A stretch of DNA of 64,000 nt from a virus (IMGVR_UViG_3300031555_002578), one strand, 5' to 3'. Numbered from the stretch's first letter, positions 5,596 through 51,382 are shown. The notes: a model not told the origin generated them from the letters alone. Made by a program: numbers and translations.

Positions 5596-5754
5596 AGTTT
5601 TACTTCCTTCCTTCTGTGTCCTTGTTTTTAGTTTCTATATACATACTATCACAACGAAAATGCTGTGTCAATATGTTTTTTTCAAATTTCCATCGGAAAC
5701 TTGTAAAAGCCTACAAAAACCATCTGCTTTTATAGGCTTTAGCAATCATCCGAT

Positions 5755-6619
5755 TTATTCCCAAAACAGAATACAGTCTTTTTCTGCATCCATCACATCA
5801 TCAGTTCTGATAATGCGTTCTAAATCAGATAAATAGATTTCAAGGAAAGTACCATAATCACTTTCCATTCCTAAGTAAGTGTCATGTTTTTCCTGTAAAT
5901 CATCTGTATATTTAACAGTGTTCCATGCCCTTTTAACTGTGAAATTGAAAAGTCTAGGCAATGGACTAGATTTAGACACTACAAAAAAAGAATATCTTTT
6001 CCCTGTCATTTCATGTGGTACTTCCTCTGTTGTATCATCATCATACATTCCTTCATAATAATCATTATCAACTGGATATGTTTCCCAAAATCCATCATCC
6101 ATACAAATCCCACCAAAACCCTCTGGATAGCGTTCTGTCAAGTCTGGAATATAAGTCATGATTCATTCCCCTTCCTCTGTGCATTTGATTATGTCAACTA
6201 TGATTTACTCTGATAGTAAATCGACAAAAGGGAACAAGCGTTTCCCTGTTCCCCTTTAGCAATTCGCCTATCTGTTATGGTCTGATAATTAAATTTGTAT
6301 AAATTGCATAAAAATCAATATTTTCTGTAACTTCAAAAGTTTCTTTTCCACCATATTCATCGTATGTTACAATATAATTTTTCCCATTTTCATGATAGAT
6401 TACAATTCTGCATCCGTTGAACATTGTCTTGTCAAACATCCAGTTTTTTTCTGGTTCTTTCAGCATTTTTTCTACTGCATTTTCAATAGCAATTCTCCAT
6501 TTTTTCGCTAATTGCCATTCTTTGCGAAATTCATTGATTCTTTTTTCCTCTGCTATATCTTTTTTTGTTTTTTTCTGTCTGCCTAACCAATAAAGTTCAC
6601 TACAAGTTCCCATAATCAT
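5755..6619 (-). CDS. Two hypothetical early proteins (5755-6159, 6275-6619)
   Basis: ORFs with GGAAGGGG RBS, each followed by a long hairpin. Confidence 0.7.
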
Positions 6620-6715
6620 TCCCCTTCCATTTTTTTGTTCATGCTCTGCGGACTTGTGACCGCCATCGGTAGCATTAAAGCGGGACTTTTTGTGTCCCAC
6701 TCCACTCTGCTTTTA

Positions 6716-6994
6716 TTATCCAATATTTCTCCATCCAATATTGTCGCAGTACCAATAATTCCCTTTGTAGTATACCACATCAGATACACTCATGGAATGT
6801 CCTTTGAAGTCATGTGGTCTGTCCAGATTGAATATTTCAAAAATTCCATCAAGACTGATTCCTTCTCTGACTTTTCCTGTCCATTTCAGTTCATAGATTG
6901 AAAAATCAAATCTGTCCTTTACTCTGTCCCAACTGCGGAAAATATGTCCTTCTGTATCCCAATCAATATTAATCTGATAAATTTTAATAATCAT
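6716..6994 (-). CDS. YodL-like domain protein
   Basis: IYQIN...FEIFNLDRPHDFKGHSMSVSDVV...YCDNIGW matches the YodL signature (RPxDFxGHSLSVSDVV). Confidence 0.8.
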   Translation of the reverse strand: MIIKIYQINIDWDTEGHIFRSWDRVKDRFDFSIYELKWTGKVREGISLDGIFEIFNLDRPHDFKGHSMSVSDVVYYKGNYWYCDNIGWRNIG

Positions 6995-7363
6995 TTTTCA
7001 TTCCCCTTCCCATCAGATAGCACAACCCTGTGCATACATAAATTCTCTGTATTCTGCATCTGTATCCAGTTCCGCAGATTTTCCAGATTTTCCCATCAGT
7101 TTCCATAAAATTTTTCTCATTTTGTTTCTTCCTTCCTTCCTTGTCTTGTGCTTTTGGTTTCCTCTGTGTTTAAGAACACAATCGGATAGCAAGGGAACAT
7201 CCGTTCCCTTCCTATCTCTATCTGTTCTCAAAATAACTGCATCAGACTGTCGTATCCCATTAGATGCAAAAATCCAATCGCATAGAAACAACCAACGATT
7301 GCAGTAAATCCAATGAATGTCAAGATATTTTCAACTGCTTTTCTCATACTCTGCAACCCCTTT

Positions 7364-7645
7364 TCAAATATTTTCATATCCAACGTCCATGACTGTATCT
7401 GTGTCACAATCCCACTGCTTTTTATTGATTTCAGAAAATCCAAAAAGGACACGAAAAGCGTTTACATGACGCAATGTTGTAGGACTGTATCCTTCCCAAG
7501 TACGGAAAAAGTGTCCGTCTGCATCAATTACGGCAACTACAGTGCTATAAGACTGTAAAAATGTGCATCCATTATCAAAAAAATAGTGTGCTTTTTTGTA
7601 AAAAGATTTTTGACCTCTGTGTGGTTTCAGTTCAAATTTTTTCAT
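7364..7645 (-). CDS. Hypothetical phage protein
   Basis: ORF with AAGAGG RBS; LQSYSTVVA...YSPTTLRHVNAF motif. Confidence 0.7.
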   Translation of the reverse strand: MKKFELKPHRGQKSFYKKAHYFFDNGCTFLQSYSTVVAVIDADGHFFRTWEGYSPTTLRHVNAFRVLFGFSEINKKQWDCDTDTVMDVGYENI

Positions 7646-7743
7646 AAATCATACCTCTTTTCTGTGTTTTGTGTGCTTTTGGTTTCTAGTGTGAATACAC
7701 CATAAAAGACACGAATTTTTGTTCGTGTCCTTCCTTGCTATAT

Positions 7744-8238
7744 TCAACCTTTGATATACATTCTGGTTTTTGTGTCAACTTTTTCAGACCCATTTTTTTC
7801 TCTGATTTCTTCAAAGTTTTTAGAATAGGACTTGTGTTTTTTCTCTGTGTTTTCAATGCCAGAAAACCAGTACCATTTTTTATATTTTCCGCTAAACTGA
7901 AAACCAGCATTTTTCAGTGTTTCTTTATGTGTGTAAGTGTTACCAGATACCCACACCCAAGACCCACAAATTTCGATATCCAGACCTTCACAGAAAATAA
8001 TTTTTTCCAGAATTTCCACAAACATTTCAGCGGTTTCAGAAGTCTGTTTTTTGCCTTCTGCTTTTGCTTTTGCGTTATCGGATTTTTTCAGCACTTCAAA
8101 CATTGCCTTGTATTCTGTGATAATTTCGCCCATTGTGGCATTATCACCGCCGTTGTCTGGATGGTACTTTTTGCAAAGTTCCTTGTATGCCTTTTTCAGT
8201 TCTTCCAGATTTTTACAGTTTGCAAAATATTTTTTCAT
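7744..8238 (-). CDS. J-domain (DnaJ-like) protein
   Basis: ELKKAYKELCKKYHPDNGG, a J-domain HPD motif; C-terminal GSWVWVSG domain. Confidence 0.85.
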   Translation of the reverse strand: MKKYFANCKNLEELKKAYKELCKKYHPDNGGDNATMGEIITEYKAMFEVLKKSDNAKAKAEGKKQTSETAEMFVEILEKIIFCEGLDIEICGSWVWVSGNTYTHKETLKNAGFQFSGKYKKWYWFSGIENTEKKHKSYSKNFEEIREKNGSEKVDTKTRMYIKG

Positions 8239-22570: not shown

Positions 22571-22644
22571 CGCAGGTTATGGAAGTGGTCTATCCGCTGG
22601 GGTTCATACCTCCAGAATCGCAGGTTCAAATCCTGCACCTGCAA
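22571..22644 (+). tRNA. tRNA-Met (CAT), initiator-like (C1:A72 mismatch)
   Basis: Cloverleaf CGCAGGT...TT-CAT-AC...GGTTCAAATCC...ACCTGCAA; no encoded CCA. Confidence 0.85.
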
Positions 22645-22711: not shown

Positions 22712-22783
22712 AGGCGGTTAGTTTAATTGGTAAAACGTCAGTCTCCAAAACTGAAGTACAGTGTTCAAATCACTGCCCACCTG
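22712..22783 (+). tRNA. tRNA-Trp (CCA); acceptor stem has two mismatches
   Basis: Anticodon arm TCAGT-CTCCAAA-ACTGA; T arm CAGTG-TTCAAAT-CACTG; acceptor AGGCGGT/CCCACCT. Confidence 0.8.
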
Positions 22784-40358: not shown

Positions 40359-43300
40359 ATGCCTAGAAATGTGGATGGCGAAATCATTGTTGGTATTGAT
40401 ATACCTGCGTCAACCAAAATTGTAGAATCTGACATAAGAAAATTATTGCAAAATTTAACAACTCTTGAAGCAAAAATAAATCATGCTGATTTAACGGATA
40501 ATGCAAAACAAGAGTTGAGAAAACAAATAAATGATATTAAAAATTTAACAGCAAATGTGGAACATCTTGCCTTAGATGATACTGCTAAACAAGAATTCAG
40601 AAATGCTGTTGGAAAAGTAAATAATTTAACTGCAAACATACAAAATGTTAAGTTAGACCCCTCTTTTCAAAAAAATTTACAGACTGCTTTAAATGGTCTA
40701 ACTGGTCTTACAATTAATATTAGCGGATTCAATATTAATCCTAATGCAGTTAAAAATGCAGGTCAACAAGTAGGGAAATTAATAAGTGATTCTGCAATGA
40801 AAACGATTGACAGAGTTACTTCTGAAGGAATTGAGATTCCTTTTACTGTTTCTTCTCAAGGTAGCCAAGCATTTAAAGACCAAATGAAGAAATTAGTTGC
40901 TGATTGGACTAATAATAAAGGTGCTTTAACCGATATCAAGATTAATACATCTACTTCTTGGGATAATAAATTACAACAAAATGTTGAAAAATTAACTGGA
41001 GCAGTTGTAACATATAATAATGAACTTGGTGAAACAATTCAAAAACATATTGCTTTAAGAAAAATTGGTGAAGGTACTGATAAAAAAGGCAATAAAGTTG
41101 ATAAAATGGGATTTGTTGAAACAAGTGCCATTTATCGAAAAACTTTGAACGTTGCTTCTGTTGCAATGGACAAGTTTGAATCAAAACAAAAAATTGCTTC
41201 TGCAAGGATTGAAAACAATCTTAAAAGATTAGCAAGAGAATATTCTGACCCAAATGCATCTAAACCAATTAATGAACAAGGACACATTTCTTCTCTTGCA
41301 ACGCAGTATGATAAGGTAAAACAGGCTATTGCTGATATGCGTTCTGCAAGTAAAGATACTTTTGTAGATGCAGAATTAGAAGCAAAGAAACAGATTTCTA
41401 TTTTACAAAGTTTAGTAAAAGAATATAGAAATGCTGAAACTGTTGCAAGTAAAATGAAAGCAGTTGATATTAGTTCTGGTGTACAGATTGCAACTGCTGA
41501 TTTCAATAAACTTAAAGCAGATGCACAAGGTTTGGGCTTAGATATTACTAAATTAGAGAAAGCATTTGAAAATTTAGAAAAAACTCAAACTGCAAGTAAT
41601 TTAAATGTTTTTAATGATGCATTAAGAACTTCTCGTGCTGAATTACAAGCATTAAAATCACAAATCAATGCTGATAGCAAACAAGAAATTTTTAATGTAA
41701 AAAAACAAGGATTAACAGAAGCCATTAAAGAATGGAAGAAATTACATCCTGAAGCAAAAAATTTTAATAAAGAAATTGATGGTGTTAATACTACTGTTGA
41801 TAGTTTATTAAAAAGATTAAAAAAAGTATCTACAGATGCAGACCTTAGAGGAATTACATCTGTTTGGGAAATGTATTCTAAGTCTGCTGAAAAAGCATAT
41901 AAAGATACTGAAAAAATATATCAACTTGCAGACATAACTGCAAAAAATCTTCTTCATATTTCTGTACCACAGAGAGGTACAAATAATGTAATGCCAGTAA
42001 TTGAAAAAATGGCTAGAGATAATAATTGGTCAAATTTCAATGTTAGTGGTGTTCAAGAAGACGATGGCAAGATTAAAAAATTAACTCTTACAGTTACAGA
42101 AGCAACTGGAGAAATTAAGAAATTTAATCTTGAAAGAAGAAAAATGCAAAGTGGCGGTCAAAACTTTAATGGATTGCTCCAAGTTGGAGATGTACAAGTT
42201 ATTAAAACTGCTACTCAAGCACAATATGAATTAAATAAAGCACAGAGAGAATCTGATGCAAAAACATTATTCTCCAGACAAAAAGAAGCATATCAAGAAA
42301 TTTGGAATATCAGAAAACAACTTGCAAAATTGGATGAAACTGATGAAACTAATTATGCTCATGTTCAAGCACTTAAAGAAGAAGAAAAAGTCTGGAAAGA
42401 TATTTGTGAAAGTGCGACTTTACAGTTAAGACTTTATGAAGATATTATAACAGCACAAGAACGTTCTGTTGCTTTAAGTGAAATTAAAGATAAAGCACAA
42501 AGTAATATCAATATTCAACAAGGCAAAGATGCATCTAAAATTGCAAAAGCAGAACAACAAGAAGATATTGCAATTGCAAATAAATTACTTTCTGACCAAA
42601 AAAGAAAATATGAAGAAATTTGGAAGATAGAAAAGCAGATTGCATATGCAAGTGAAAATGGTAAAACAAATCTTGTTTCTCAATTATCAAGTAGAAAATC
42701 TGATTTAGAAAAAGAATATTCCATCATTTCTAAAGAATTAGATAAATATGATGCAATTATTGATAGAGAAGAACAATCTGCGAAATTAGCAGATGTTCGT
42801 GCAAAAGCAGAACATGAAATTTTATCTATTACTGCAAAAGAATTAGATAAAATGAATGATATTGCTAAAAAGGAAGAAGAACGTTTAGCAAAGAAAGCAC
42901 AATCTGACCATGATGCTAAACAAGCCATGTATGAAAAATTATGGTTTGATTATGATAATGGAAATCTTAATAAAGTAAAAACAATCGATGATAATGTAGC
43001 AAATAATACATATGCTACACAAATCAACGATTTAATTACTAAATATAAACAATATGGCTTAACTGTTGACCAAGCAGAAGATAAAGTAAGAGAATTACGT
43101 TCTACTTTGGCAACAATGAGTAATGCTGATAAGTCTGCTGAAGAAAGAATCAAAGCAGAAGAACGTTATCAACAGGCATTAAAAAAAAGTCAAAATGAAG
43201 TAAAAGTGTATTCTCAAAATCAACGTGGTCTTGCCACAGACCAACAGCGTTTGGCTTTGGCAAATACTATGGAAGCATTTTTACAGAAAAATACTAGAAT

Positions 43301-44607
43301 TACTGCAAAAGCAAGACAAGAAACAGAAATGTATATTGCCACTCTTAGAAATTTAAATTCTGAGATGACAGTAGTTGCTAAGAACGAAATTAATAATTCT
43401 TTTAAACAGATGCAGAATAATATGCGTGTTCTTGGCAAACTTGGCTATGCCTTAAAAGACCAGATGAAACAAGCAACTGGTAGTTTTGTTCAATGGTTCT
43501 CTGTAAGTAATTTGGTTATGAGTGGCATTTATCATGGTAGAAGTGCCATTACAGAACTTAAAGAAATTGATACATACTTAACAGAAATTAGCAAGGCTAA
43601 TAATGAGTTAACAAAATCTGAACTTGCAGATATTGGTAATCGTTCTTTTGATATTGCAAGTAATTATGGTAAAACTGCTACAGACTTCTTATCTGCTGTA
43701 CAAGAAGCATCTCGTGCAGGTTATAAAAACGCAGAAGGAATTGCTGAATTATCTACTGCGGCTCAAGGTGCAGGTGACATGACTTCTGATGTTGCAAATC
43801 AAATGTTAATTGCAACAGATAAAGCATATAAAATGAATGGTGCTGTTGATTTATTAAGAAATACCCTTGATGGTATGAACTTTATTACTAACAACAATGC
43901 CGTTAATATGACTGAATTATCTGAGGGTATGACAATTGTTGCATCCACTGCCGCTTCTTTTGGTGTTGGTGTTAATGAATTAACAGCAGCATTAGGTACA
44001 ATGTCTGCAACAACACAGCAAAGTGGTTCTGAAGTTGCTCGTGCTTTTAGGGCTATCCTCTTAAATATCAGACAAGTTTCTGATGAAGAAGAAGGAATTG
44101 ATGCAGAAGGTTTAACAAAATATGAAAGAGCATGTAATGCTTTAGGGGTTAAATTAAAAGAAACAAAAGATGGGGTTCTTTCTTTGCGTGACCCTATGGA
44201 AGTTTTGAAAGAATTATCTGAAGAATATGTTAAACTTGATGAAAGTGATATCCGTAGAACTAATTTACTGAATTCTGTCGGTGGTAAACTAAGAGCAACA
44301 CAATTAGATGCTTTATTACGTCAATGGTCTATGTATGAAAAGATGCTTGGCGAATATGAAGCAGGTATCGGCTCAATGGCAGTCGAAGCAGAAAAAACTG
44401 CTAACTCTTGGGAAGGTAGTTTAAATCGTTTAAGTAATACTTTTGCTGACACTATTGGCAATATTGCAAATTCTGATGGTGTGATTACACTCATCAATTC
44501 TTTAAATGAATTATTACAAATTATAAATAAATTAACTGATTCTTTAGGGTCTTTTGGCTCTATTGGTATGATTGGTTCTGCCATTTTAGGCGGTAAAGGG
44601 TTAGGAT
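40359..44607 (+). CDS. Tail tape measure protein, exon 1
   Basis: Coiled coils plus a TP901-type TMP core (ELKEIDTYLTEISK...TQQSGSEVARAFRAI...WEGSLNRLSN). Ends GGKGLG at a TAA that straddles the predicted 5' splice site. Confidence 0.85.
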
Positions 44608-45037
44608 AAACATAGTTTACTGTCCCCTTCTATAAGATTATATATAATGCCATATAATTAACATAGAGGGTGTTTTACAAGATTATTCGTTGATTGAGTA
44701 AACTAACCTTGGATTGAAATATCCTAAATTGTCGAATATCGGGAGAAGCCGTAATCCTAGGAATAGGTATCTGATGGATGAAATAAAAGCGTGAAAACGT
44801 TCCTGACGAGATATATTGAAGATGGTAGTCCCGACCCGTTATGCAAATATGATGAAAGTGTGATTTCAAGTATAACGGGCTACAGGGTGACAAGACATGG
44901 GTACACACAGGCATAATTGTGTGTTTCGCCACAACATACACTCGGCAACCTTGGGGAAAGCCCATGAGAAGCGAACAGAGAAACGAATAGGGTCTTCCCT
45001 ACTCTGCTTAGTACATATCACACAATAATACTTGGAA

Positions 45038-45074
45038 TAAAAAAGGTAGAGGATGTTACTCCCCTACCCTTTTC
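45038..45074. terminator. Bidirectional terminator-like hairpin inside the intron
   Basis: AAAAAAGGTAGAGG-loop-CCCCTACCCTTTT, directly after the stop of the minus-strand cargo ORF. Confidence 0.7.
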
Positions 45075-45281
45075 TTATTTTGCACCACAATAATATCCTT
45101 CTTTAAATCCCATTTCAAGTTTAAATAAAATTTCTGCATGAAGCAATTCTTCCATATCTAAGTAGGTATTTTCTGGAATGTTATTGATAAGTAATGTTTG
45201 AAGTTCTTGATAAATTGGGTCATTTTCAATTAAATAATAGTTTGTGGAATTAAGATAATTTTTAAAATCTTCTTTATACAT
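45075..45281 (-). CDS. Intron cargo gene, 68-aa hypothetical protein
   Basis: Strong AAGGAGG RBS 9 nt before the ATG; terminator downstream. Confidence 0.8.
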   Translation of the reverse strand: MYKEDFKNYLNSTNYYLIENDPIYQELQTLLINNIPENTYLDMEELLHAEILFKLEMGFKEGYYCGAK

Positions 45282-45362
45282 ACTACTTTCCTCCTTTTTC
45301 TAATCTTAATGTTTGCGAGGTTATGTATCTTTTAGAAAAAGGATTTACCATATAAAGATGAA

Positions 45363-45515
45363 TTATAAAAATAAAATGTTGGATAATGTTATACCTACAA
45401 TCTCGCAAATTTTAGCACACAATAATCCTAAGAATATGGCACTAAGTTTAATTAATATTTCTAATTGGGATTTTGTAAATTGTGATGTAAAATAAGTTTT
45501 AATTTTTTGAAGCAT
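45363..45515 (-). CDS. Possible intron cargo gene, 50-aa hydrophobic peptide
   Basis: MLQKIKTYFTSQFTKSQLEILIKLSAIFLGLLCAKICEIVGITLSNILFL; lies downstream of the antisense promoter but has no clear RBS. Confidence 0.45.
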   Translation of the reverse strand: MLQKIKTYFTSQFTKSQLEILIKLSAIFLGLLCAKICEIVGITLSNILFL

Positions 45516-45562
45516 AGATGTAGAGATTTGATATATTACAATTTTCCAAGGATTGTATTTAT

Positions 45563-45591
45563 ATTATACCATAAAAATAAAGCGTAGTAAA
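45563..45591 (-). promoter_or_regulatory. Antisense sigma-A promoter straddling the 3' splice site
   Basis: TTTACT(45591-86)-N17-TATAAT(45568-63) with the extended TG. Confidence 0.6.
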
Positions 45592-48500
45592 CTATGGAGC
45601 AGATGGTCAAATCTCTAATATTTTTAGCGAATATAAACAGGCTAAATTAGTGTCTCAAAGTTCAGCAAATTTTGCAAATCAAATTTTTGCTATGAATAAT
45701 GATACTTTTAAAACTAAAGATTTAGATGCTTTCGCTAAAGGAATCGGCAATGTAAATTCTACTGTATTACATTCTGCAAAATTAATGCAAGAAGGTAAAT
45801 TAAGTACCGATGATTTCAAAAAAGTAGTCGCAGGTACAGTTCCTAAATTAGATGATTTTGCAATGAATTTAAAGAACATAGCATTAAATATGGGTGCTAT
45901 GTTAGCAGTGATGATTGCTATTAAAGCAGTAACTTATATAGTTGATGAATTATATGTTTCTTTTGAAGAACAGAAAGAAATTGTTGAAGATTTGACTAAT
46001 AGTATTGATGAACTTCAATCTGAATATGACACTTTAAAAGCAGATGGTTCTGGCTCTAATGCAGAATTAAATTATCTGAAAAAACAGATTGATTATAAAA
46101 AAGATTTACTTGAAATTGAAAAAGAACGTCTTGCTTTAAAAGATATAGAAGAAAATATGCCAGATTTATCTAGTGATACTGGCACATCTGGTGGTCATGT
46201 TAATGCTACTTGGACACCAGATGATATTGCTGAATCTGATATTCAAGAAGATTTAAGACAACTTGAAGCAATTCATAATCGTATGGAAGATATGCGTAAG
46301 AATGGCACGAATAATGCTAGTAACTATGTATATCAAAATCAACTTGCTGAAGAAGCAAGATATATGCAATCTTTAAGTGATAATATTGGATATCTAAAAG
46401 AAGATTATGCTGAAATTGCCGAAGCAAAGGCTAAACTTGAAGAATATATTTCTGATGGTATTTTAAAAGGTTATAATGCTGAAAAAGCAAAAGAGCAAAT
46501 TATAGAATATCAAAAAGAACTTAATAGATTAGACCCCATTATTTTAAATGCTGAGATTGAATTAGGTACTGCAAATTTTGAAGATAAATATAATGCATAT
46601 TTAGATAAAATTAAAAAGGCTAATTCGATGGAAAATCTTGGGGTGTCTGAAGACAAATACCGTGATGTTGGATATGGTGGAACACTTATAAAATCTAGTG
46701 AATTAGATAGTCTAATTGATAAAAATAAAGAGTTAAACACCACATTCCAAAGTGGCGAAATAACTGCATCTGAATATTTTAATAGCCTATCAAAAATGTT
46801 TGAAAAAGGTGGGAAAATTGCAGATGCTTATGACAAACTTGATTTTGACCGTGTTGCAAATGAATCTGGGAAATGGGTTCTTAATAGTACAGACTATTTA
46901 GAAGAAACTGTTTCACAATTAGTTTCTCAAATAACAGATGCAACATATGAAGTAACAAATGCTTTTGCTCGTGGAGATATTTCTGTTAAAGAATATTACG
47001 ATTCTTTACAAGAAAGTGCTGATGCACAATTAAAAGCATTGAAGACAACTAATAAATTAACTATAGGAACAGATGATTTGGCTTATGCTACAGAAGATAG
47101 TAGTGAACAGACCAAACAAGCAGTAGAACATTATAATGAATTACACAATCAATTAGAAGAAATGGATATCATGGAACAATTGGTTGATGTGAATACTAAA
47201 TATGCTGACACATTAGATGATATTGGTACTGCAACAGAAGATATGTTGAATGATGCATCTATACAGAATTATGTATCAGAAGCATCTAATGCGGTTGCGT
47301 CTTACATGCAACAAATGCATTCCTATTATGAAACTACTGGACAAGATTTTCAGACTTTAGTTAATTATTTTAATGAAGTTGCAGGTTCAAGTTTTACAGC
47401 ACAAGAATTGTTATCTAAAAATAGTGCGGATATTATTTCTGATTATTTTGGGGATACAATGTCTGGCGTTACTGATTTGGCAACTGCTATTGCAACAATG
47501 ACAGGTGATGTTATTGCTGATGGTGCAAGTAAAATTGGTGATGTATTAACTGCATTGGGAGATACAATCTCTAACTTTGATTATACATTAAATATTAGTA
47601 CGGAAGGTTTTGATATCCCTTGGTCTGATATTATTACACTAAAAGGAATATCATTGCCACCAATAAACGCCGCAATTAATTTTGATGGTTCTGGAGAATC
47701 TGTTGGTGCATTAGGTGATGCAATTAAGGGTGTTGGGGATTGGGTAAAAACTGATGCTACTCAATTGGCATTAAAAAATATTATTGGCAATTTTGATAGT
47801 TGGAAACCTAAGAATAATGGTTCTGATTCTACATCTCCATATACTTCACTCGATTCACCTACTGATAAAGATTCTAGTGGAGGTTCTGGTTCTTCCAAAG
47901 ACCCTCATGTTGCAGAAATTGATAAATATAAAGAACTGACTGATGCAGTTGAAGATTATGACCGTCAATTAGAAAGACTTGAAAATGCCTATGACCATAC
48001 AGATAATGTAAAAGAACGTATTGGTTTGAAACAAGCAGAAATTCAGATTTATCAGAGACAGAAAGATGCTATTGATGCATTAAATAAGGCTCGTGATGTT
48101 GAAATTAGTCAAAATGTTGAATTACTGCGTAAGCAAGGATTTAAGATTACATATGACCCTAATACTGAACAATTGATAATTCATAATCGTGAACATATCA
48201 ATGACTTGTCTCAGGATATTATTGAAACATATGAAGACCTAATTGAAACAACTGATGAACTGAATGATGCCAATAAAGATTCTGCTGACCAATGGGATGA
48301 ATTAACTTATGCTATTGTTGATGCAGGTAAAGAGTTGACTGAACTTCGTATTGAACAATATGAAAAATATATAACAGAGCAAGAACATCTGTTAAAACTA
48401 CTTGCTAATCGTGACGATGCTCTGAAACAAGACCTTCCTATCTATGATGATATGATGGATGCTACACTAAAAATGTGGCAAGAACTTGTTGATGACGGTT

Positions 48501-51382
48501 ATGAAAAAAATAAAGAGCAGATTCAAGAATTAGAAGAAGCATGGATGGACTTCTATGATTCTCGTATTGAGCGTGAAAAAGAACTTCTTGAAAAACAATT
48601 AGATGATAATGATGATGCACTAGATGCTATTATTAAGGTTATTGAAGATGAAATTGAAGCCATTGATGACCAAATTGATTCTTTGAAAGAAGCGAATGAT
48701 GAACGTAAGAAAGCACTTGAACTGCAAAAAGCACAGGCTGAATTAGATAAACAACGCAATCAAAAAACTAGATTAGTTCTGCGTAAAGGCAAAGGTTGGG
48801 TTTGGGAATCTGATGAAGATGCTGTTAAAGAAGCAGAAGAAAATGTTTCTGACCTAAAATATGAACAGCAAGTAGATAAACTTGAAAAAGAAAAAGAAAA
48901 ATTAGAAGATTTAAAAGAGTTGTGGGAAGAAATTCCAGACATTAAACAGAATGAATGGAATGAACAACTCATGATTGATAAACTTGGTGCTGATGCTGAA
49001 GAAGATATTTTAAGTGGCAGAATCGATGTTATGGAAGATTTCAGAGATGACTACACTGATATTCAGCAACAAATCAAGGATAAGACTGACGAACTTGAAC
49101 AACATACCAGTGATGCGTATACAAAGATTGTAAAAGAATTTGAAAGACTTGCTAAACTTGCAGGTATTGATTTTAACCTAGATGATGGTGAAAAGATTAC
49201 AACTACACAATCTTCTTGGTATGTAAATAAAAATGGTAAAGCCCCTTCTCAGGCTCAAGTTGGAGATATTGTATACACTAAAGGTGGTACATATCGTATT
49301 ACAGCAAAAGATGAGAATGGTAAGTTTACTAGCGAAAAGATTAATGATAAATCTACTGACATTGCTGAAAACCAATGGGGCAAAAAGATTTCTGAACGTG
49401 TAATTGCATCTGGGGAAGATGTTGTTGATTCTGTAAAAGATATTATTCGCACTAATGAAGATTTGGTTGATGCTGAAAGACGAAATATTCTAACAAGTGA
49501 AAATCTATCCAAATATATTGTAGATGGCAATACTATTACAGAATTTAATAGTGATGTTATTGATGATAATACTGATGAAACAGAAGATTTATCTGATGAT
49601 ACTGAAGAAAATAGTGAAGTAACAGAAGACAATACATCTGAACTAAAAATTTTAAACAATAATCTTGAAAATCTTGAAAAATTATCTCTTGAAGAATTAC
49701 CAGAAGACCCCTTTGAAATGCTTGACTGGGGTTCTATGACAACAGATGAAAAGAACTGGATTAATCAGATGCGGGATGCATACATGATTGCCCTAGAACA
49801 AGGTAATGAAGTGTTTGCAAATCAGATTCTTGGCATGTTGTCTGACTTCCAAGCAGGTTATGGTGACGAATATATTCAGATTGGTAAAGATGCTTATAAT
49901 GCCGCTACAAATCCTTTTGGATATGAAGGAAAAACTTCAACTGGAGGTGGTGGTGGTTCTGGCACTGAAGATAGAATTGCCGACCTGAAATGGCTAAAAA
50001 GTAAAGTTGATGAAGACCCTAGTAAGTGGTCTGATAAGTTTAAAGATACTTTGGAACGAGCAATTGCTATTGAAGAATATGGTTCTGGCACTGATTCTTA
50101 TAAATATAACAATGGTTATATGACAACTACCATTACATCTGCCACAAATGAAGCAGAAAATTATATGACTGCTGAAGAAATCAAGATGAAGTATGACTAT
50201 GAACATGGTAATACTAATAACGGATATGACCCTGAAAAGATGGCAGAAACAGTTGCAGATAGAATTGCAGAAGCAATTGAAGATGGTGCTGACAGTATTT
50301 GGGGTGGATTCTTACCTAAAGATTTTGATTATGCTACAGAAGTAATTAAGGATAATGAAGAATCTTTGAAAGATTATATTAAATCTACTACATCTGGCTC
50401 TAGCAGTGGGAATAAAACATCTAGTCAAAAGGCTATGGATGATAATAAAGTATCACAATCTGATAGAGATAAAATTGCTGATGCTCAAAAGAAATATAAT
50501 GAAGCAAAAGCAAAAGGTGATACTCAAGGAATGGCTGATGCCCATAAAGAAGCAGAATCTATTCGTAATAGTTATGGTTATTCTGGTGGTGTGGATGGTT
50601 CAGAAAACATCAGAACAACATCTGCTAATACCAAGTCTGTGAGTGAAAACACCAAGGCTACTACTTATAATGCAGATTCTACTAATGATAATACAGATTC
50701 TATGGATGCTAACTCAGATTCAGTAGATAAAAATACTAAATCTAATGAAAGTTTAGGGGAAAAATTAGATAAAGGATTGACAGTTAATGTAACTGGAACT
50801 GGTTCTGGTAGTGGTAGTTCTGGTAGCAAAGGTGGTTCTGGTGGAGGTAGTTATGGAAGTAATTCATTGCCATCAGAAGGTAGAGTAAAATGGACGAAAA
50901 CAGATAATGGTGATGGAACAACAACACATACTGCAATTGGTAGTGATGGTAGTACCAAAGTAAGTTACACTACAAAGAATAAAAAAGCAAAAGGTGGCTT
51001 AAACCTTAAAGGTGATATTTATAATGTCAATGAAAAAGGTGATGAAATCGTTCTGGATAAACCAGAAGAAGGAAATTGGATTCGTATTAATACTGGTGGT
51101 ACTGTAATACCTCATGAAGCCGCTGAAAATATGTGGGAATTTGGTGCTAATCCTAAAATGTTTTTATCTGATTTACTTGGTTATGATGCTATGAAGATGA
51201 ATCAGCAAATGGTTTATATGGGTGGCACTGGCGAATCTAAGACTATTATTGAAAACCATTATCATGACATGCATTTCCATGACGTAAAAGATATGGATGG
51301 CGTAAAACAAATTCTTGCAGGTCTACCTGCTCATGCTGAACAGCATTGTACAAGTAGAACAAGAAGTGTTCGTACAGTTTAA
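45585..51382 (+). CDS. Tail tape measure protein, exon 2
   Basis: Frame is open upstream of the track's GTG 45650, which has no RBS. TM-like ALNMGAMLAVMIAIKAV, long coiled coils and C-terminal NEKGDE...GGTVIP; terminator at about 51395-51422. Confidence 0.85.

Follow-up and report, generated by a model that had tools for sequence, protein, structure and literature searches.

Group I introns of phages are commonly regarded as selfish elements whose spread depends on homing endonucleases. Here, we describe a stretch of viral DNA of 64,000 nucleotides (IMGVR_UViG_3300031555_002578; the whole stretch is called the window and positions are counted from its first letter) in which the tape measure gene of a gut phage of roughly 180 kb is probably interrupted by a divergent intron of the group I type. 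This element occupies positions 44608-45584 of the plus strand (977 nt with a terminal G at 45584) and its loop appears to be an exchangeable slot for cargo genes that are encoded on the minus strand. From comparison of the sequences we infer that the element is spliced.

The closest described elements are TMP-IVS1, 2, 3a and 3b, which are group I introns that interrupt tape measure genes in prophages of the Bacillus cereus group (Tourasse and Kolsto 2008, PMC2504315). The locus presented here resembles them in intron type, interrupted gene and occurrence in Firmicute phages. They use several insertion sites per gene, with which a second site found here (around codon 1310, in L004 and L008) agrees, and most of their copies lack a complete homing endonuclease gene. 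In contrast with the present locus, the TMP-IVS elements are ordinary IA1/IA2 introns that are either empty or contain endonuclease genes or their remnants. The portion of that paper considered here describes neither an independent antisense unit nor defence cargo, and the core analyzed here is not recognized by Rfam. A related layout is known from the IStrons CdISt1 and BcISt1 (Tourasse et al. 2014, PMC4227781), which consist of a 5' group I ribozyme, a long passenger other than an endonuclease and a short 3' terminal part that includes the splice site, and whose insertion is rendered harmless by splicing. However, an IStron carries as its passenger an IS200/IS605 transposon, by which the whole element is moved, whereas the passenger here is encoded on the opposite strand as a unit from promoter to terminator and differs from phage to phage. 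Classification as an IStron was rejected, as neither the window nor the cargo of its relatives contains a transposase or TnpB ORF (open reading frame) and terminal IS structures are absent; a match to IS605-orfB-I with 11.6 bits is noise.

The introns of T4 td, nrdB and sunY (PMC3984707) are likewise of the self-splicing type, reside in essential phage genes and have an ORF looped out from a peripheral helix. In T4 this ORF encodes a sense-strand endonuclease that mobilizes the intron, whereas the present element has no endonuclease and its genes are antisense with a promoter of their own. Phage morons and prophage defence hotspots of P2/P4 type (10.1101/2021.01.21.427644) are comparable as promoter-to-terminator units at a fixed position between conserved flanks, and these hotspots show a fast turnover of toxin–antitoxin and defence genes. 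But known hotspots are situated between genes, while the slot described here would lie within the coding region of a structural gene that is essential and be harmless only via splicing. A full-text literature search did not find a description of any phage group I intron with independently promoted antisense cargo of the defence type.

Two long reading frames flank the element. ORF1 (40359-44609, 1416 codons) contains a PhageMin_Tail domain at residues 1100-1296 and ends at a TAA stop (44607-09) if the RNA stays unspliced. ORF2 (1910 codons) is called from a GTG at 45650 and its frame is open from 45581. They are separated by 971 bases with stops in all frames. Cuts after T44607 (between GGAT and AA, where this T opens the TAA stop) and after G45584 (between GCG and TAGTAAAC) would connect exon 1 (40359-44607, plus strand, 1416 codons and the T of the junction codon) with exon 2 (45585-51382, plus strand) in the joint codon T-TA (Leu), which is followed by VNYGADGQ. 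The predicted product of 3348 amino acids (aa) reads ...GKGLG-L-VNYGADGQ... over the joint, and the predicted junction peptide of the ligated exons is GLGLVNYGADGQ. Thus, both ORFs are probably exons of one tape measure protein. Relatives of this locus fall into three clades, namely A (the window and L003), B (L002 and L008) and C (L004-L006, L009, L012, L014, L015 and L017). They comprise ten complete loci and two further contigs that contain the core but end before the 3' splice site. At each of the ten complete loci, joining at the equivalent splice sites keeps the reading frame.

The beginning of ORF2 is peculiar for a separate gene. Among 29 homologues of its start, 28 have been annotated as proteins in their own right, about 1720-1910 aa long, and the remaining one is a fragment of 1129 aa. 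Their called starts vary (ATG, GTG or TTG), and those that reach far enough upstream converge on the motif VVNY(D), while the leader residues ahead of it are unrelated and not conserved. This conserved beginning of exon 2 itself has neither a start codon nor a Shine-Dalgarno (SD) site, and the first in-frame start in the window past the motif is the GTG 22 codons downstream, which also lacks an SD. A profile-free search of 1.8 billion representatives revealed proteins in which the start of exon 2 is internal. P0066, a single ORF of 2550 aa in contig L020, spans the joint colinearly. Residues 958-1744 of the spliced protein match residues 204-988 of P0066 in one alignment across the joint (E 5e-32), where LVNYGADGQISNIF stands opposite LRYDSNNGIYTVF, and blocks further downstream show 48-49% identity and extend to the C-terminus. 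P0096, P0141, P0133, P0111 and P0138 are likewise colinear over the joint. The tape measure proteins of Tsamsa and FADO are single ORFs too (3123 and 3080 aa), and one high-scoring segment pair spans the joint in them. Since exon 2 on its own is not significantly similar to these two proteins, they count as support for the architecture only. The tape measure protein of MT835723 was discarded as a joint-spanning homologue because it aligns with exon 1 only.

These data have to be weighed against an explanation without any intron, according to which two tape measure genes are translated separately and the gap is an intergenic accessory island behind some other conserved structured RNA, e.g., an element of the 3' untranslated region or a small RNA. 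Such an arrangement would agree with the lack of a match to the Rfam group I model, with the presence of the gap in every close relative and with the 107 distant homologues of the exon 2 start, for most of which a protein likewise begins at this place. It leaves unexplained why the conserved start of exon 2 is devoid of initiation signals, why the splice sites give in-frame joints and why one-piece homologues run colinearly over them. It also has to face an RNA with the helix order of group I and covariation, in which a U.G pair, a terminal G and a covarying pairing of 11-13 bp connect ends that are 1-7 kb apart. We consider it very unlikely.

The ends of the proposed group I intron show the features in question in detail. 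The P1 hairpin (44604-44625, plus strand) is formed by GGAU (44604-07) and GUCC (44622-25) together with the pair A44608-U44621, and its wobble U44607.G44622 sits at the 5' splice site. It is kept in all ten complete loci, with the variant AGAU in L005. The P10 guide (44611-44621, plus strand) forms 11 perfect bp with the exon 2 bases 45586-45596. In clade B the helix has 12 bp and in clade C 13 bp; a C-G pair is replaced by A-U and both strands change in length in step, so that this pairing covaries between the clades. The intron-terminal G45584 is the last base of a conserved GYG that directly precedes a U. Part of the guide (44613-44621) can pair instead over 9 bp with an internal AGTAAACTA copy at 44697-44705, a pairing that has a 7-bp version in L004 and L006 of clade C and is absent in L005; the guide could be masked by competition from such a helix. 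A group II intron was ruled out, as the element starts with AAACAU, ends with GCG (not GUGYG/AY) and matches no Rfam group II model.

Between these ends a fold with the typical order P3-P4-P5-P6-P7-P3'-P8-P7' can be drawn on the plus strand, including the P3/P7 pseudoknot. It is preceded by the P2 hairpin (44626-44670, 44626-33 with 44663-70), for which clade C has a different sequence that pairs over 10 bp. The catalytic core with helices P3 to P8 extends from 44730 to 44944. P3 (44730-33/44894-97) reads UGUC/GACA here and UGCC/GGCA in clade C. P4 (44740-44/44829-33) is followed by P5 (44748-52/44822-26) with three apical hairpins at 44756-67 (GNRA loop), 44769-79 and 44788-801 (GAAA loop), and by P6 (44835-42/44872-79) with P6a. 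P7 consists of C44883-G44944, the bulged A44884 and the strands 44885-89/44939-43 (GGGUG/CACUC), beginning with G44885-C44943, and is invariant across the clades. Its putative guanosine-binding bases would have their counterpart in C262-G312/A263/G264-C311 of Tetrahymena. P8 (44898-44931) is followed by J8/7 with the sequence AACAUA, and the peripheral hairpins P9 (44950-66) and P9.1 (44971-45012) close this part of the element, with two-sided changes seen among their helices. The GC content amounts to 44.5% in the core, 25.5% in the loop and 30.3% in the window.

The helices were drawn by hand and then counted on alignment A2. The tips of P2 and P9.1, which were mis-registered by MAFFT, were left out of the structure count and inspected by eye, and L011 was excluded from it. 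In the 14 helices with 67 pairs, 99.2% of cells are paired. Both sides are altered in 12 pairs, whereas sliding the partners by 1-3 columns leaves 0-2 such pairs, and none of 500 shuffles reached the observed structure values. As P7 never varies, it is uninformative by covariation. The key pseudoknot thus hangs on one changed pair of P3, because neither P7 nor P5 shows any two-sided change.

Downstream of the core the loop is closed by a stem, P9.2, that the preliminary description had already proposed and that was found as claimed. Its 5' strand ACAAT-AATA-CTTGGAA (45022-45037, plus strand) pairs with the 3' strand TTCCAAG-G-ATTGT (45544-45556, plus strand) by 7 + 5 standard pairs, with a loop of about 500 nt between them; the 3' strand lies inside the 5' leader of the minus-strand unit. 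The surrounding kilobase is AT-rich, and inverted pairs of 7 nt or longer occur in it 58 times, so that the stem by itself is not beyond chance. It gains weight since CUUGGAA/UUCCAAG is retained in two of the three clades (A and C) amid 3' tails that are otherwise unalignable; clade B lacks it. A further pairing is available between 44702-44713 and 45545-45556 (UUCCAAGG of the 3' tail), and covariation does not discriminate it from the stem proposed initially.

The content of the loop turned out to be highly variable. Compared with positions 44608-45025 of the window the relatives are 72-87% identical, and a core of roughly 415 nt is common to the ten complete loci together with the splice sites. 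Intron lengths are 977, 979, 1062/1063, 1898, 5237/5239, 5921, 6494 and 6859 nt. Swapped cargo of 0.5-6.4 kb is found in the relatives, with core and 3' end constant. This corresponds to the prediction, made from the window only, that related phages would share a constant core and differ in the loop. In every relative the 3' splice site is adjoined by a minus-strand gene. Cargo genes include a RelA/SpoT protein of 392 aa (PADLOC PDC-S33, E 2e-116), AbiQ/ToxN (E 3e-29), several MazF/PemK-like proteins and zinc-ribbon/Lar-like proteins, whose minus-strand genes neighbour the splice site. This content agrees with the initial suggestion of an exchangeable slot with exclusion or toxin–antitoxin-like cargo. 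Directly behind the PDC-S33 RelA/SpoT gene a drum RNA (RF02958) was detected in L014 (4532-4636, 45.2 bits) and L005 (3103-3207, 43.9 bits), the gathering score being 43.

A more distant phage, L016, has a tape measure gap (5622-8001) that begins with unrelated sequence, shows a similar hairpin after a homologous gene and has no match to the Rfam group I model. It contains the two small genes of the window (p50 and p68, see below) with their terminator, at 42% and 68% protein identity, and with an internal promoter of its own. Because this module is present there behind unrelated sequence, p50, p68 and the terminator seem to move as a unit. Further cargo of the L016 gap comprises a MazE/MazF-like gene of 193 aa and a Lar-like minus-strand gene of 101 aa, and an R-element-like GTTCAACGACTACC is found in it as well. 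In the short human-gut contig L011 (1-424) unrelated AT-rich DNA is followed by only the 3' half of the core (from about P5'), which points to recombination or to a chimeric assembly. Searches in other collections (blastn against INPHARED, protein scan and DNA pattern scan of IMG/VR, pattern scan of GTDB) gave no matches.

The window itself contains a compact antisense unit in this loop, and the elements that had been predicted for it were recovered. Its promoter (45563-45591, minus strand) comprises a TG-extended -10 box TATAAT (45568-63), a 17-nt spacer and a -35 box TTTACT (45591-86). The -35 box coincides with exon 2 bases +2 to +7 and overlaps the P10 target 45586-45596. The claim of a minus-strand promoter with its -35 box in the 3' exon proved correct in its coordinates, and this site is the best-scoring one in 11 of 11 loci. 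In all of them the spacing near the 3' splice site is 17 nt with different spacer sequences. The -35 box occupies positions +2 to +7 in nine loci; in clade B it is shifted by eleven bases into the intron (positions -3 to -8). Promoter-like sites are frequent by chance, and the promoter call therefore derives from this conservation.

The putative promoter is followed by p50 (45363-45515, minus strand), a peptide of 50 aa with a basic N-terminal half and a hydrophobic C-terminal half, and by p68 (45075-45281, minus strand), an acidic protein of 68 aa that is predicted to be all-helical and has the SD AGGAGG. For both, the ratio of nonsynonymous to synonymous substitutions (dN/dS) in the minus frames points to purifying selection (0.12 for p50 and 0.27 for p68), while the shifted frames of p50 exceed 1.6. 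The 50-aa hydrophobic peptide noticed at first is thus a real ORF, and the 68-aa ORF indeed has the strong ribosome-binding site ascribed to it. Lengths and frames of both are unchanged in other clades, including clade B with the same lengths. A plus-strand ORF of 60 aa (45313-45495) was rejected as coding. Between the two genes a hairpin of 12 bp (45292-45343, minus strand) overlaps with its 3' arm a part of the p68 SD, and in clade B an unrelated sequence at this place still pairs with the p68 SD and start codon. There are hints from these sequences that translation of p68 may be coupled to that of p50 via an SD-masking hairpin that is kept in shape only.

Also the terminator expected in the loop is present (45039-45074, minus strand). 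Its hairpin is strong on the minus RNA (-21.2 kcal/mol, z -4.6) compared with -13.6 kcal/mol on the plus RNA, where it is weaker because G.U pairs turn into A.C mismatches. Owing to this strand asymmetry it should halt the cargo transcript and let the tail transcript pass. This point concerns the idea of splicing in trans, in which terminators and internal promoters of the cargo split the precursor while P10 and P9.2 hold the RNA of exon 1 and ribozyme together with the RNA of 3' tail and exon 2. The unusual length of P10 (11-13 bp) speaks for such a mechanism, as do loops of up to 6.4 kb with several oppositely oriented units and the ability of the 45039-74 hairpin to fold on the plus strand too. 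Nevertheless, no plus-strand promoter was identified ahead of the 3' segment, the loop of the window has only about 500 nt with a terminator that is weak in the plus direction, and none of the observations requires splicing in trans, which in our opinion makes this mechanism extremely improbable.

As stated in the preliminary description, LAGLIDADG, GIY-YIG or HNH ORFs are missing. The largest ORFs of the gap have 68, 60 and 50 aa, and none matches an endonuclease family of Pfam or PHROG; an ORF of the His-Cys box type is absent as well. A decayed endonuclease was dismissed as origin of the cargo, since purifying selection acts on both minus-strand ORFs and the two reappear together as a module in L016. 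The p68 family comprises 16 proteins, none of them annotated, and p68 matches no Pfam, PHROG or PADLOC family. Its AlphaFold2 model shows four helices (pLDDT 68.5), for which Foldseek returned nothing from the PDB at E below 1; the Atlas leads DUF6809 and DUF5846 (E 0.087) were too weak for use. For p50 no homologue was obtained by a search of the protein collection and no known family was matched; its homologues in L002, L003, L008 and L016 were found by tblastn only. The layout of p50 and p68, with a small hydrophobic peptide ahead of an acidic partner whose SD is masked, is suggestive of a toxin–antitoxin-like pair, though neither matches a toxin–antitoxin family.

Whether this cargo is of any use for the phage can be judged from the same data. 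The intron might be real and its loop passive, filled with hitch-hiking DNA or leftovers of inserts behind a promoter that does not work, without benefit for the phage and kept because deletions that preserve splicing are rare. The lack of known families for p68 and p50, the absence of a clear SD of p50 and the abundance of promoter-like hexamers in the AT-rich DNA of this region would fit. Hitch-hiking DNA would hardly keep the dN/dS values given above in the minus frames, a module that recurs at such protein identities in L016, an identical promoter geometry in 11 of 11 loci despite differing spacers, or in clade B the SD-masking hairpin with different sequence, and the relatives contain full-length genes of the defence type. 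A passive loop thus appears quite improbable.

Several observations weigh against a group I intron with an exchangeable slot for minus-strand cargo. RF00028 was not matched at gathering or at E up to 10 by the window, the gap, the core alone or eight relatives; with this model the other L004 intron scores 21.8 bits (E 0.0067). For this reason the element is labelled an atypical group I intron and not a textbook one. The exon side of P1 is limited to four pairs, P7 and P5 are without two-sided changes as mentioned above, and with only three clades the counted changes represent few independent events. UUCCAAG of P9.2 has an alternative partner in the invariant CCUUGG (44707-12) just 5' of P3. 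Promoter-like sites are no commoner than in shuffled sequence (8 versus 6.8 +/- 2.8). Relatives would have introns of 5-7 kb, a very great length for this intron class in bacteria. Moreover, an intron-less allele was not found in a close relative, and the one-piece homologues are distant, with unlike DNA at the site. With these points included we still regard a group I intron in the tape measure gene, the loop of which is an exchangeable slot for minus-strand cargo, as likely with considerable confidence.

The following mode of action is proposed. Late transcription would read through the whole element, and its first ~415 nt would fold as the ribozyme. P1 (GGAU/GUCC with its U.G pair) would present the 5' splice site, whereas the P9.2 stem and the unusually long P10 (11 bp) would draw the 3' splice site across the cargo loop. 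Two transesterifications would then ligate T44607 to T45585, and the TAA stop at the 5' junction would be eliminated in favour of one protein of 3348 aa. The loop of P9.2 would be a slot that the ribozyme tolerates and that holds a self-contained minus-strand unit, in which a promoter of sigma-A type with its -35 box in the first bases of exon 2 would drive the membrane-like p50 and then p68 up to the terminator. We infer that host RNA polymerase could in this way express the cargo apart from the late tail operon, be it early in infection or in a possible lysogen. Convergent transcription might also dampen the expression of the tape measure gene, as suggested at first. Recombination via the conserved flanks, i.e. 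the ribozyme core on one side and the promoter with the start of exon 2 on the other, would swap the cargo between phages. As these flanks allow such swapping, the slot may act as a hotspot for toxin–antitoxin, defence and anti-restriction genes.

Besides this intron the gene has a second insertion site at window position 44286 (codon ~1310 of ORF1), which is empty in the window and in L002. It is occupied in L004 (3288-3806, ~520 nt, with the weak RF00028 match) and in L008 (2590-4615, ~2 kb, with ORFs of 59 and 426 aa), and probably also in L003, where the interruption appears slightly further upstream (ORF1 residues ~1164-1197). On paper this second intron splices after GGU and a terminal G and restores VGGKLRA; in type it comes closer to an ordinary group I intron. 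L005, L006, L015 and L017 likewise show an interruption in the upstream part of the gene, with an ORF of 651 aa before the last piece of exon 1. Elsewhere in the window a type-P5 twister ribozyme (6648-6711, minus strand) was detected with 55.6 bits (E 7.5e-09), well above its gathering score, and Rfam finds two tRNA genes on the plus strand at 22571-22644 and 22712-22783 (45.4 and 54.2 bits).

As regards annotation, the tape measure gene in this group is routinely split into two calls, with its cargo taken for intergenic sequence. For detection the results mean that a group I core can be missed by the standard covariance model. In clades A and B unspliced RNA would give a product of 1416 aa that ends at the junction TAA. 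Concerning the role of the element we would suggest, with somewhat less than even confidence, that large gut phages keep this intron as a sheltered and exchangeable defence hotspot, in which the start of exon 2 is both P10 target and -35 box, and ribozyme and junction anchor recombination in co-infection. As the start of exon 2 would then be an RNA target of P10 and a -35 box in DNA at once, the choice of the splice site and the expression of the cargo would be locked to the same bases. A loop that is neutral owing to splicing would provide a fixed address for independently expressed accessory genes. The slot thus points to a new kind of hotspot for defence and toxin–antitoxin genes, which may resist loss because imprecise deletion would destroy the essential tail gene.
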